Shown piece after piece: positions 51,207 to 56,891 of a stretch of 64,000 nucleotides of DNA (within the stretch, counting starts at the first letter, position 1; each line of letters starts with the position of its first letter). Origin of the DNA: a virus. A program made the translations under genes and the position numbers. The notes beneath the pieces are model-generated. The model was given only the letters and a program-made list of their open reading frames with translations, was not told where the DNA came from and did no database searches. The DNA lies in IMG/VR virus record IMGVR_UViG_3300042402_003181; one strand, given 5' to 3'.

Positions 51207-51848
51207 ATGGCATTTAAAGTAGCGTATTTTGCCCCAACTATTATTGCAGCGGATCAAGTTCCGCCTGTTGAATTTAGCAAGTTATTTAATTTAACCAATC
51301 AATTACATTTGCATCCCGAGTTACACGAAGCTGATAATCCATTTGTTAGTTTAGTGGGCGGATCTCATATTCAAATGTACCCTGCAAAAGTTGAACTTGA
51401 TATTAATTGGCTTATTGTTTGGTTAGAGACAGTGTGTCAAGAGTACATGGATTTAGTAACTGTGCAAACTGGTACAACTGATTTGAAAATATGTAAACCA
51501 GTAATTACAAATGTATGGACTACCCAGCAAACATCAGGAAATTATCAAACCATGCATAGCCATCTAGGTAGTAATATTAGTGGCAACATTTATATTAGCA
51601 CACCTAGTCTTGATGCTAACAGTAACCCTTCCGACGGTCAATTTGTTTTAAAAATGCCGCAAATTAAAGATATATCTAGATTTGTTATGCAAGATACATG
51701 GAAAACTGATACATCGCCTGGTACCCTTGTAGTGTTTCCAAGTTGTTTAGCACATCTTACATATCCATGGAACGGAACCGGTACTAGGACCGTTGTGTCT
51801 TTTGAAGCGGCAATAGTACCAATTATTGATGACGAGGATGCAGCATGA
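51207..51848 (+). CDS. 2OG-Fe(II) oxygenase superfamily protein (HxH type, TIGR02466-like)
   Basis: W......NYQTMHSH...ISGNIYI...PGTLVVFPS.L.H...P....R..VSF. Confidence 0.8.
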   Translation: MAFKVAYFAPTIIAADQVPPVEFSKLFNLTNQLHLHPELHEADNPFVSLVGGSHIQMYPAKVELDINWLIVWLETVCQEYMDLVTVQTGTTDLKICKPVITNVWTTQQTSGNYQTMHSHLGSNISGNIYISTPSLDANSNPSDGQFVLKMPQIKDISRFVMQDTWKTDTSPGTLVVFPSCLAHLTYPWNGTGTRTVVSFEAAIVPIIDDEDAA

Positions 51849-52327
51849 GTGATAAAGTAGAACTAAAAGAAAAGATTCAAGCAGTAGATATGAACATTCG
51901 CGAGTTATGGGACGAACTTGATGAAGTAAATCAAAAAGGCCTTAAGGGTGAATTGTTTATTTTAAATAGATACATTAGCAATGTTAAAGGTCAATCATCG
52001 GAAATACAAAAACACTTTGTAATATCAGTAAACGAATACTATAACAAAAATTGGTTCTTGTTGTCAAAAGAACATTCAAAATTATTATGGTTATTGTTAT
52101 GTATGTGTAGTTTTAACGGAGAGAAAACATTCTTTCATGAATGGCTTGGCAACAAAAAGAAAGACGGTAACGATAATAAGAAAGTACAGTTTTTAGCCGA
52201 GCTTAATCCTGCTATGAAGATGCAAGAAGTTGAAATGTTAGCAAAACTAACACCGACTAAAGAAATAACTAAGTTAGCTAAAGACTACGGATTTGAAGAT
52301 AAAGATATTAAAAAGAAACTTAAATGA
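51845..52327 (+). CDS. Hypothetical protein, possibly clamp-loader small subunit (gp62)-like
   Basis: FILNRYIS...VNEYYN.N weakly resembles gp62; judged by eye only. Confidence 0.4.
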   Translation: MSDKVELKEKIQAVDMNIRELWDELDEVNQKGLKGELFILNRYISNVKGQSSEIQKHFVISVNEYYNKNWFLLSKEHSKLLWLLLCMCSFNGEKTFFHEWLGNKKKDGNDNKKVQFLAELNPAMKMQEVEMLAKLTPTKEITKLAKDYGFEDKDIKKKLK

Positions 52328-53016
52328 TGAGTTTACAGCCTAAACCATTTGAATGCCAGTACTGCAAGAGTAAATTTGTAAAAGAATCTACTCTTATGGT
52401 TCATGTATGTGAATCAAAGCGTAGAGCATTGGCACAAAAAGAAAAACATGTAGTGATAGGGTTCGAAACATACAACATATTTTTTCAAAAAACACAAAGC
52501 TTTCATGGTGTAAAGACATACGAAAACTTTTGCAAAAGTCCGTATTATAATGCGTTTGTTAAGTTTGGAAGTTTTGTTAGTAACGTAAAACCGTTGTATC
52601 CTGACAAGTTTATTGTGTTTGTAGTAACTAGTGGCACTAAGTTAGATCATTGGTGTAGAGATGAGTTATACGACAAGTATGTTGTAGATTTAATTAAAAC
52701 TGAATCAGTAGAAACTGCGTTAGAACGTAGCATTAATCACATGTTAGATTGGGGTGATGCAAATAACGCACAATGGAATCATTACTTTTCATATGTAAGT
52801 TTAAATAGAGCAATGTATGATATTAAAGATGGAAAGATTAGTCCGTGGATTGTGTTAAATTCAAATACTGGCAAATTAATGATAAAACGATTTAACGATG
52901 AACAACTTGCAGCAGTGAGCAGTGTATTAGATATACCGTTTTGGTTTAACAAGTTTAAACATAGATCAGCTGACGTAGAGCTTGTAAAAACTGTAGTTAA
53001 GGAGAGTAATCTATGA
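52324..53016 (+). CDS. Hypothetical protein with N-terminal zinc finger
   Basis: FECQYCKSKFVKESTLMVHVC = F.C.2C.3F.5L.2H.C. Confidence 0.7.
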   Translation: MMSLQPKPFECQYCKSKFVKESTLMVHVCESKRRALAQKEKHVVIGFETYNIFFQKTQSFHGVKTYENFCKSPYYNAFVKFGSFVSNVKPLYPDKFIVFVVTSGTKLDHWCRDELYDKYVVDLIKTESVETALERSINHMLDWGDANNAQWNHYFSYVSLNRAMYDIKDGKISPWIVLNSNTGKLMIKRFNDEQLAAVSSVLDIPFWFNKFKHRSADVELVKTVVKESNL

Positions 53017-53084
53017 GCATAAATATTGCGATTGAAACAAAACCAGATTATCATTGGAGGTTCATCACCTATGCCGGATATTGA
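53013..53084 (+). CDS. 23-aa small ORF MSINIAIETKPDYHWRFITYAGY
   Basis: AAGGAG RBS, ATGA overlap with upstream stop, 14-nt overlap with downstream ATG 53071; not in ORF track. Confidence 0.4.
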   Translation: MSINIAIETKPDYHWRFITYAGY

Positions 53085-53628
53085 CATTGACTTTGCTAAT
53101 AGAGATCTAGCACTGTCAAAATTAAAACATGTTACGGCAGCTATTAGTATTCAAAAAAAACACAATACAGGCATCTACTGTCACAATATACCACACAATC
53201 CAGTAACTGGGGTGAGTACAATTGACTATAAAGAAGCTGAAGACAGAGGTTATTTTAAAATTGATTTTCTCAATGTTATGATATATAAAGACATTCGAGA
53301 TAACGACCATCTACTACATTTAATGGGAACTGAACCAATATGGGAACTATTACTTCAAGAAGACTTTGTAAATCTACTATTTCATATAAACGGGCACATA
53401 GATATTCTGAAACAGATGCAGCCGACTTCCGTGGAACAATTAGCTGCAGTCCTGGCGATGATAAGGCCAGCGAAACGCTATTTGATTGGGAAAGAATGGA
53501 CTACGGTGATGACAGACATATGGGAACACTCAGACGCTGACGCCGGGTATGCATTCCGTAAATCGCATGCAATTGCTTATGCAATGGCGATTGTAGTGCA
53601 GATGAATTTAATTTGTGAAGAGGTTTAA
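53071..53628 (+). CDS. Miniature DNA polymerase III alpha (DnaE)-like catalytic core, 185 aa
   Basis: PDIDIDF, KHNTG, GYFKIDFL, AMIRP, YAFRKSHAIAY motifs; GGAGG RBS before ATG 53071. Confidence 0.82.
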   Translation: MPDIDIDFANRDLALSKLKHVTAAISIQKKHNTGIYCHNIPHNPVTGVSTIDYKEAEDRGYFKIDFLNVMIYKDIRDNDHLLHLMGTEPIWELLLQEDFVNLLFHINGHIDILKQMQPTSVEQLAAVLAMIRPAKRYLIGKEWTTVMTDIWEHSDADAGYAFRKSHAIAYAMAIVVQMNLICEEV

Positions 53629-53996
53629 GGTTTTCGGACGAGTTGAACAGATTTACGTTTAACTCGTTTAACTGTTAGGTTCATTAAATTAACTACTGGA
53701 CCTAATATTATACGAGTATCTTTGCTATTAAATGTTTTAATTGCATAACTAAATGGTTGCAGTTCTTCTCTGCAAAATATAGATATTGGAAATTGTCGAT
53801 TAGATTCCCACCACCATATCTCGCCTATCTCTAAAAACGTTACTTTATCGTCAGCTGATAGTATTGCGTTTAAGTCGTAGAAACTTGTTACGTACTGATC
53901 TTGGTTGGTAATTATACCAACATATTCATCGTTGCCGTAAGTAATCACACTAATAAACGGTAAATTTTGTTCTATGTTATCTCTTAAGTTTGCCAT
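53625..53996 (-). CDS. Hypothetical protein (123 aa), isolated minus-strand gene
   Basis: ORF track; likely start MANLRDNIEQ at 53996; stop overlaps the dnaE-like stop (TTAA). Confidence 0.65.
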   Translation of the reverse strand: MANLRDNIEQNLPFISVITYGNDEYVGIITNQDQYVTSFYDLNAILSADDKVTFLEIGEIWWWESNRQFPISIFCREELQPFSYAIKTFNSKDTRIILGPVVNLMNLTVKRVKRKSVQLVRKP

Positions 53997-54020
53997 AAAT
54001 ATATATAAAGGATATTGCCA

Positions 54021-54827
54021 ATGCAAAAAATATCAAGTTATTTATACCCAAACCGAATCGAACTTATCGCCGATCTGGTTGGATTTACAGTGGAGTTCAC
54101 ATCAGTGTATCAAAGAAATGTAAAAATTTATAATGGTATTGATAATACCATTGAGTTCGATATTAAGAACGCAGATCAAAAACGAATTGACTTAACTACG
54201 TTAAGTGTAATTGAACTAAACCTTATGGATGTTTCTGGCAATGCCCTACCTAACAGTCCATACGCAGTTGCTCCAATTGTTGATAAAAAAGGAATTGCTA
54301 AAGTTACTATACCACAAGAAGATCTTGTTGATCTTACTCCCCAATTTTTAACATATAGTGTTAGTGCAGTTAAGGATGGCGCCGATGTTATGCTGTATGC
54401 TGATACTAAGTTTGGCGCAGTTGGTACAGTTGAACTTATTGGCAACGCAATGCCAACTTTCCGAAATGAAAAAATTTATAATACGTTTAGCGGCGAAATT
54501 GATTATATGGGCAATGTTGTAAAACATACTAGTTCAATTCCTGCTACGTTTTACGAAGCAGTGCCAACTACACAATTATCATTTGAAATTTCAATAACTG
54601 GGTTTATTGGTAAAGTATGGTTAGAAGCTACTACTGCATCAACTATTAGTGTTAATTCGTACCTACACGCAGTTAAGTTAGCAGAACGAACTATTGTTGC
54701 ACCAAGCTCAACTCCTATCACATTTGACAACGTTGATGTTGCAGATTTTAAATATTTTAGAGTATTATACCAAGGCAATAGTCCAATCAATCCAACCGGT
54801 ACTGTTGACAAAGTAACCGTTTGGTAG
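54021..54827 (+). CDS. Hypothetical beta-rich protein, possibly structural
   Basis: CATAAATA (53994-54001) and AAGGA upstream of ATG 54021. Confidence 0.6.
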   Translation: MQKISSYLYPNRIELIADLVGFTVEFTSVYQRNVKIYNGIDNTIEFDIKNADQKRIDLTTLSVIELNLMDVSGNALPNSPYAVAPIVDKKGIAKVTIPQEDLVDLTPQFLTYSVSAVKDGADVMLYADTKFGAVGTVELIGNAMPTFRNEKIYNTFSGEIDYMGNVVKHTSSIPATFYEAVPTTQLSFEISITGFIGKVWLEATTASTISVNSYLHAVKLAERTIVAPSSTPITFDNVDVADFKYFRVLYQGNSPINPTGTVDKVTVW

Positions 54828-55843: not shown

Positions 55844-55953
55844 AAAAACTTTTAGAGATTATACTACGACCATACACTAAGTGGAAAGAAGATCGTGCAT
55901 ACAATAAACGTATTGAAGAACTCCGTAAACGAGACCCGTTTATATACAAATGA
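55840..55953 (+). CDS. 37-aa small ORF MKKLLEIILRPYTKWKEDRAYNKRIEELRKRDPFIYK
   Basis: GAGG RBS, ATGA overlaps at both ends; not in ORF track. Confidence 0.7.
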   Translation: MKKLLEIILRPYTKWKEDRAYNKRIEELRKRDPFIYK

Positions 55954-56891
55954 TTAGTTGGGGCATAAACGCATTAAATCATGGCTCTAGCATAGCAGTT
56001 ATTACTGATAAGCTAGAGTTCTTCCAAATTGATAATTCTAACGATATACTTGAATCAAGTATAGATCTTGCACTAATGCACGGAAGACCTGATCGTATCT
56101 ATTGGTACGAAAATCCATGGATTAAGAAAGGTCGACAACTATATGCAGGACAATACAGTACAGCATTTGATATGTCATCATTACCGACTGCGCATTTAAA
56201 GAAGGTCGGCCTTAGTCATATTCCACTTACGTATACTAAACACCATGCTAGTCATGCTGCAGCCGGTTATTATACCAGTCCGTTTACTGATGCTGCAGTA
56301 GTGGTGTTAGATGCAATTGGTGAGTTTGAATGTGCTACTATTTGGCACGGCAAAGGTGATAACTTAACAAAAGTTTGGTCAGCATCTTATCCAAATAGTT
56401 TAGGTTTATTCTACTCAGCATTTACACAACTAATTGGGTTTACGCCAATACAACAAGAGCATCTATTACAATTGTCTGCAGAAGTTGGAGACCCGGCTAG
56501 ATATTATAATACAGTAAAGAGTTATTTTAATGGAACAGTTAAACTTACTCGCAACTTACACAGAGGTGTACTAGATTGGCCACATCCTATAAAGAACTTA
56601 CAAGATCAAACTGATATCGCAGCAGCAGTACAAAAGGTATTTGAAGAACAACTATATGGAGTTCTTGAGGTTGCATTTCAACTCACAAAGTCGTATAATT
56701 TAGTATACATGGGCGGCTGTGCAATGAACAGTTCAGCTAATAAAAAATCGTTACACAATTGGGAAAAAGTTTGGAGTTTACCTAATCCAGGTGACCCTAG
56801 TAGTGCAATTGGTGCAATATTGTGGCACACAAAACAACGGCTTGTTTGGGGTAATAATACTTCTAAACATATTGAAATTAAAGGATATTAA
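55950..56891 (+). CDS. Carbamoyltransferase N-terminal (Kae1-like) domain only; C-terminal YrdC-like domain absent
   Basis: HHASHAAAGYYTSPF, VVLDAIGE, SLGLFYSAFT..IGF, LVYMGGCAMN, NPGDPSSAIGA; ends at 313 aa immediately before the helicase ATG. Confidence 0.82.
   Translation: MISWGINALNHGSSIAVITDKLEFFQIDNSNDILESSIDLALMHGRPDRIYWYENPWIKKGRQLYAGQYSTAFDMSSLPTAHLKKVGLSHIPLTYTKHHASHAAAGYYTSPFTDAAVVVLDAIGEFECATIWHGKGDNLTKVWSASYPNSLGLFYSAFTQLIGFTPIQQEHLLQLSAEVGDPARYYNTVKSYFNGTVKLTRNLHRGVLDWPHPIKNLQDQTDIAAAVQKVFEEQLYGVLEVAFQLTKSYNLVYMGGCAMNSSANKKSLHNWEKVWSLPNPGDPSSAIGAILWHTKQRLVWGNNTSKHIEIKGY

Follow-up and report, generated by a model that had tools for sequence, protein, structure and literature searches.

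The reading frame at 53071–53628 of the window analysed here, a 64,000-nt stretch of viral DNA from IMG/VR record IMGVR_UViG_3300042402_003181, encodes the C-terminal subunit of a split, minimal DNA polymerase III alpha. The family was already published in 2021, when Iyer, Anantharaman, Krishnan, Burroughs and Aravind described such a split enzyme in group 2.2 jumbo phages by comparative genomics (Viruses 13:63; PMC7824862), and the present gene, referred to below as the C-half, is one more member of it, conserved and real. The best explanation of its function is that it acts together with a second, separately encoded protein (the N-half) as a heterodimeric DNA polymerase, a reading to which we assign a probability of roughly 80%. 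New here are a naturally fused 375-aa form of the two halves and the occurrence of both halves in 141-kb Alishewanella phages.

Read from the sequence, the C-half opens with ATG at 53071 and ends with a TAA stop (Table 1). An alternative TTG at 53026 would extend the product by 15 residues to 200 aa; relatives start at M-P-D, in contrast to this upstream TTG. All motifs that the initial annotation had listed are present at their places: MPDIDIDF (D3, D5 and D7), KHNTG (residues 30–34), KIDFL (K63 and D65), the R132–P133 pair and YAFRKSHAIAY (residues 160–170, with K164-S165-H166 inside it). Its estimate of about 58 residues between the second and third aspartate was likewise borne out, D7 and D65 being 58 residues apart versus 152 in E. 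coli. The protein matches PHROG 11778 (‘DNA polymerase’) over the full length of the profile, with residues 3–183 on positions 8–193 of 197 (E 3.1e-66).

Table 1 Features of the C-half gene and its replication-module neighbourhood (positions in the window).
Feature	Position	Strand	Basis and remarks
UvsW-type helicase, 487 aa	49232–50695	+	Pfam ResIII, DEAD, Helicase_C; upstream anchor of the conserved module
2OG-Fe(II) oxygenase	51207–51848	+	PF13759, E 6e-16; between UvsW and C-half
230-aa conserved upstream neighbour	52324–53016	+	PHROG 11058; one N-terminal C2H2-like zinc finger
GGAGG ribosome-binding site	53056–53060	+	10 nt before the ATG at 53071; read from sequence
C-terminal (Mg2+- and template-binding) subunit of split minimal Pol III alpha (C-half)	53071–53628	+	185 aa; PHROG 11778, fold, conservation
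Conserved small convergent gene	53625–54026	-	PHROG 11637; overlaps the C-half stop by 4 nt
gp61-type Toprim primase, 327 aa	54860–55843	+	Pfam Toprim_2; synteny with relatives’ annotated primase
313-aa protein between primase and helicase	55950–56891	+	Pfam Carbam_trans_N, matched in its C-terminal two-thirds only (E 1.5e-29)
gp41/DnaB-type replicative helicase, 466 aa	56892–58292	+	Pfam DnaB_C; synteny

Sequence comparison places the C-half among C-family polymerases. Pfam returned a sub-threshold DNA_pol3_finger match only, and no PHP, OB or clamp-binding domain was found in the C-half with these profiles. A phmmer search of the PDB sequences matched DnaE chains only, weakly but in strict collinearity. 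On Mycobacterium tuberculosis (Mtb) DnaE1 (5lew, E 2e-4), C-half residues 1–11 correspond to 413–423, 52–134 to 568–663 and 150–173 to 765–788; on E. coli alpha (2hnh), residues 34–69 correspond to 527–559, 105–134 to 612–641, and the YAFRKSH segment to 754–760. Because these matches are collinear, D5, D7 and D65 can be equated with E. coli D401, D403 and D555, and H166 with H760, so that the catalytic triad proposed earlier is kept. The roles of these residues in Pol III alpha, including that of H760 as the proposed steric gate, have been described (PMC8485763).

The fold leads to the same assignment. An AlphaFold2 model of the C-half built on 78 diverse relatives was highly confident (pLDDT 95.8, pTM 0.88), and the best 18 Foldseek matches to it in the PDB were all C-family polymerases. 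Superposition with VIA-align gave Z 9.7 for Taq DnaE (3e0d_A, chain residues 461–836; 183 of the 185 C-half residues at an rmsd of 3.5 Å), Z 9.7 for PolC (3f2b, 971–1294) and Z 8.8 for E. coli alpha (2hnh, 400–780). Only C-family polymerases scored above the next chain, an unrelated one with Z 3.5. According to the model, about 380 residues of E. coli alpha (400–780) are compressed into 185, the thumb having been lost along with most of the fingers. The structure prediction against DnaE palm and fingers that had been suggested as a check, together with the collinear matches, thus upholds the description of this protein as a drastically reduced palm/fingers piece; the lack of Pfam matches and the span of 185 residues over alpha 400–780 agree with the claim that thumb, PHP, OB and clamp-binding parts are missing.

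The missing first part of the palm is encoded elsewhere in phages that carry the C-half. In Atu_ph07 it is gp316 (177 aa), which ends ...GVGRGS...FSEFLE; this C-terminal end is the GS-motif segment that directly precedes MPDFDVDF in DnaE. N-halves of the relatives, about 170 aa in size and bearing the GRGS NTP-binding motif, end likewise in ...GVGRGS...(20–25 residues)...EFL(E/R), and they match Pfam PF07733 (positions 12–94) above the gathering score. The residues at which the N-half ends are homologous to DnaE ...FERFLN, the very point from which the C-half continues with MPDIDIDF. Trans-splicing of the two halves was considered and rejected, as they end exactly at DnaE-homologous residues and leave no spare length for intein halves.

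The two halves also occur together. The C-half was found in 96 sequenced phage records, nearly all of them jumbo myoviruses or partial records of such phages, which are relatives of Atu_ph07, PA5oct, RaK2, 121Q and XacN1; Phosso and XacN1 are themselves among the carriers. Identity to the present copy is 55% for Atu_ph07, 46% for the PA5oct group and about 40% for the RaK2 and 121Q groups. Numbers of records with either half pair up by host genus: Escherichia 34/34, Pseudomonas 11/11, Klebsiella 11/10, Erwinia 8/8, Salmonella 8/8 and Xanthomonas 4/4. A fused query matched 186 places in the 96 phage records, which is about two in each, and in none of them were the halves joined. The distance between the halves is 31–43 kb in 121Q, RaK2 and PA5oct and about 183 kb in Atu_ph07. 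Among five large IMG/VR contigs with a C-half 63–82% identical to ours, three (G001–G003) carry an N-half of 166–168 aa at 159–185 kb from the C-half; the two without it are 23% and 42% complete. The C-half is also present in Alishewanella phage Slickus01 (OQ508957.1, 141.6 kb), and the N-half in its sister Slicko01 (OQ508956.1). The split mini polymerase occurs, then, also below jumbo size, in genomes of about 141 kb (<200 kb).

A natural fusion of the halves was found on a 2.4-kb contig of ENA assembly ERZ28653423 (scaffold_211374; L091:1066-2193). The encoded protein of 375 aa (P0256) runs from an N-half (...GVGRGSS...KEFIK) through a linker of about 10 residues into a C-half (ADFDIDT...), and PF07733 aligns straight across the joint (residues 97–207). 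With larger numbers of C-halves, MAFFT wrongly set the N-halves against them, and the model was built on an unpaired alignment with five C-half rows only. One of five AlphaFold models was confident (pLDDT 85.9, pTM 0.81, with residues 80–375 mostly >85), the other four having pLDDT 61–66. This best model superimposes on Mtb DnaE1 over 292 residues at an rmsd of 3.3 (Z 20.8) and on Taq DnaE with Z 19.6, twice the DnaE score of the C-half alone, although the way it packs like DnaE may reflect solved structures known to the predictor. The next matches are Pol-beta-type transferases (CCA-adding enzyme, Cid1 and CutA; Z 3–4) over residues 102–267. As this region spans both halves, the nucleotidyltransferase fold is, judging from the models, divided between two genes, and neither half alone has a complete active site. 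The fused protein could represent the ancestral unsplit state or a secondary fusion; either way it offers a convenient single-chain construct for biochemistry. The only ‘longer’ match of the word search, an ENA protein of 335 aa (P0122), was rejected as an assembly chimera: between its C-half and the C-terminus of a UvsW helicase stands DVYKRQ, the translation of the Nextera adapter.

The window lies on an IMG/VR record of 175,916 bp that CheckV estimates to be 48% complete. On this contig no N-half was detected by PF07733, by a search with Atu_ph07 gp316, by tblastn or by a scan for the GRGS motif, and no family B polymerase by PF00136. The best tblastn match of the N-half (E 1.5) proved false, falling inside a proline-rich structural gene. 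The relatives G002 and G003 do carry a family B polymerase of about 890 aa, so the proposal to look for such an enzyme elsewhere in the genome came back empty for the contig itself and positive for these two relatives. By tblastx, the left end of our contig aligns with G003 at about 38.9 kb; in that relative the N-half is at 8.6–9.0 kb and the family B polymerase at about 33–34 kb. Given this synteny, both genes plausibly lie just beyond the contig end, and an N-half of the present phage itself is predicted from its relatives. The regions flanking the N-half genes of relatives had no counterpart on the 175.9-kb contig.

Around the C-half, the window holds a T4-type replication set of UvsW, primase and DnaB helicase, and the Pfam assignments confirmed the initial view that the gene sits in such a module. 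The window shares the order UvsW, small genes, C-half, convergent small gene, virion structural protein, primase and DnaB helicase with Atu_ph07, Phosso, PA5oct, RaK2 and Slickus01. The UvsW helicase occupies the same position in RaK2 and Phosso, and the convergent arrangement of the small gene is common to Atu_ph07, Phosso, PA5oct, RaK2 and Slickus01. In PA5oct, a gene of similar size to our 230-aa neighbour is found directly upstream of the C-half. The zinc finger of this neighbour comprises residues of about 6–30 (best PDB sequence match E 5e-4), and the protein is possibly a DNA-binding accessory. A 91%-identical relative (L092) shares the 2OG-Fe(II) oxygenase gene. In the same relative the helicase directly follows the primase without the 313-aa gene, which therefore looks like a recent insertion in our phage. 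Just upstream of the convergent gene, a TATAAATA box is present at 54039–54046 on the minus strand; the Atlas copy of the protein encoded by this gene begins at residue 11, read as M. T4-late-type TATAAATA boxes, sigma-70 patterns and terminator patterns were not enriched around the C-half gene.

Of the four functions offered by the initial annotation (stand-alone nucleotidyltransferase, primer-extension or repair enzyme, one subunit of a split polymerase, mimic of host Pol III), that of a subunit of a split polymerase is the one supported by the analysis. The choice of neighbours as partners did not: the products of 51845 (PHROG 11758), 52324 and 53625 showed no DnaE similarity. The C-half supplies the palm strands with the metal-binding D5, D7 and D65 plus K63, as well as trimmed fingers that retain the RP motif and a KSH helix with its histidine as the proposed deoxyribose steric gate. 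The first half of a Pol-beta-type fold, with the GRGS triphosphate-binding loop, is on the separate protein of about 170 aa from a distant gene. In the mechanism that we propose, both proteins would join non-covalently to form an enzyme of about 350 residues, capable of templated DNA synthesis from dNTPs. Such synthesis would probably be short and non-processive (repair, gap filling or primer extension), next to the family B replicase; low processivity is to be expected of an enzyme lacking the thumb, clamp-binding, OB and PHP parts.

The most likely reading is thus an obligate, DNA-synthesising heterodimer. It is backed by homology, fold, conserved residues, purifying selection, the joint occurrence of both halves and the fused protein, with association, templated synthesis from dNTPs and low processivity as predictions. 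Its possible use for repair, gap filling or primer extension, alongside the family B replicase, is speculation in keeping with the fixed place of the gene by primase and helicase. More specifically, and only tentatively, the two-piece templated polymerase of about 350 residues might be a primer-extension or gap-filling partner of gp61 and gp41 that hands over to the family B replicase. A point against the heterodimeric polymerase is the loss of the thumb and most of the fingers, which bears on how DNA would be held.

A related reading, which we consider rather unlikely, keeps the heterodimer and makes it a specialised nucleotidyltransferase working with primase and helicase, for example in lengthening RNA primers by a few nucleotides that the family B replicase would then take over, or in the addition of untemplated nucleotides. 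It draws on the constant position of the C-half gene, always between the UvsW and the gp61/gp41 genes, and on the absent thumb, clamp-binding and OB parts, which predict low processivity. In addition, B. subtilis DnaE is reported to lengthen primers briefly and then hand off to PolC (PMC5627055). However, the steric-gate histidine (77 of 78 representatives) and the conserved finger helix on the template side point to templated use of dNTPs, and the N-half gene lies outside the primase/helicase module. This reading refines the heterodimeric DNA polymerase and does not contradict it.

That the 185-aa protein is a self-sufficient minimal nucleotidyltransferase, perhaps as a homo-oligomer, is in our view improbable. 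All three catalytic aspartates, K63 and the steric-gate histidine are indeed on this one protein, its model is confident on its own (pLDDT 95.8), and the 175.9-kb contig holds no partner gene. Yet the protein lacks the half of the fold that binds the triphosphate through GRGS, the fused form could be aligned with Pol-beta-type transferases only over a region that takes in both halves, and the N-half co-occurs with the C-half throughout the cultured phages, besides the existence of the fused form itself. The apparent lack of a partner is also weakened by the 48% completeness of the contig and by the synteny that would place the partner gene off its end. The terms ‘minimal core’ and ‘stand-alone nucleotidyltransferase’ used for the C-half were hence overstated, since only both halves complete the Pol-beta-type fold.

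The C-half is both strongly conserved and abundant. In a set of 78 full-length representatives clustered at 50% identity, D3, D5, K63, D65 and P133 are each conserved in all 78 and R132 and H166 each in 77, as is D7 (77/78), for which one sequence has Glu; the catalytic aspartates thus passed the conservation check that had been recommended. Nei–Gojobori estimates against relatives of 63–94% identity gave dN/dS of 0.05–0.13 where dS was unsaturated. This purifying selection refutes the reading as a decayed dnaE fragment, which the dN/dS comparison had been meant to probe. At least 8000 clusters (90% identity) of C-half proteins of the same length came up in a word-based search, and the N-half is likewise abundant in metagenomes, where it too forms at least 8000 such clusters. 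Searched exhaustively with HMMER, the 50%-identity representatives yielded 404 C-half clusters, 265 of them at E <= 1e-10, and IMG/VR contains at least 547 C-half loci. A catalytically dead protein, whether left over from the decay of dnaE or acting as a decoy or mimic of host Pol III by binding host replisome parts, is the least credible reading and very hard to uphold: the length of less than a fifth of DnaE speaks for it, against the low dN/dS, catalytic residues invariant or nearly so in 78 sequences sampling 404 clusters, the thousands of clusters of equal length and, for a mimic, the absence of all beta-, tau- and epsilon-binding regions of alpha, which leaves little to mimic.

If the heterodimeric DNA polymerase is real, no other C-family polymerase would come near the two-piece enzyme in smallness. 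The gene shows how far the active site of a C-family polymerase can be reduced, namely to about 350 residues divided between two genes that lie far apart, which bears on the evolution of Pol III and on the needs of giant T4-like phages in addition to a family B replicase. Iyer et al. proposed that the minimal state is close to the ancestral Pol III core (PMC7824862), and the enzyme could preserve such a near-ancestral state. The split mini polymerase is also present in phages studied for therapy (PA5oct, Callisto and the RaK2 group). Our search of the literature found no experimental paper on the activity of any mini Pol III alpha member.

Compared with known systems, the likeness to Pol-beta-type nucleotidyltransferases is weak and at the level of the fold only, concerning the core of the fused form; the fingers module and the steric-gate helix are C-family-specific and set it apart from those enzymes. 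Full-length DnaE (2hnh, 3e0d and 5lew) shares with the C-half the catalytic aspartate triad (D401, D403 and D555), K553, the RP motif and the K758-S759-H760 helix with its steric-gate histidine. Unlike DnaE, the C-half has no PHP, thumb, beta- or tau-binding and OB parts, and the palm with its GS motif is not complete on one polypeptide, its first half being located on another. PolC of Firmicutes (3f2b) matches the C-half as well as DnaE does (Z 9.7), with the same losses, and structure alone does not discriminate whether the mini form is nearer to DnaE or to PolC. The closest system is the split Pol III alpha of the group 2.2 jumbo phages described by Iyer et al., with Atu_ph07 gp74 and gp316, PA5oct gp264 and RaK2 ORF124 as examples. 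Our copy, from an uncultured phage and an incomplete contig, shows no difference in kind from these. It belongs to the same family, with the Mg2+-binding palm strands, the template-binding part, the DxD and KxD aspartates and the full-length PHROG 11778 match of the C-terminal subunit, the same minimal size free of other Pol III alpha domains, the same DxD start and the same replication-module neighbourhood.
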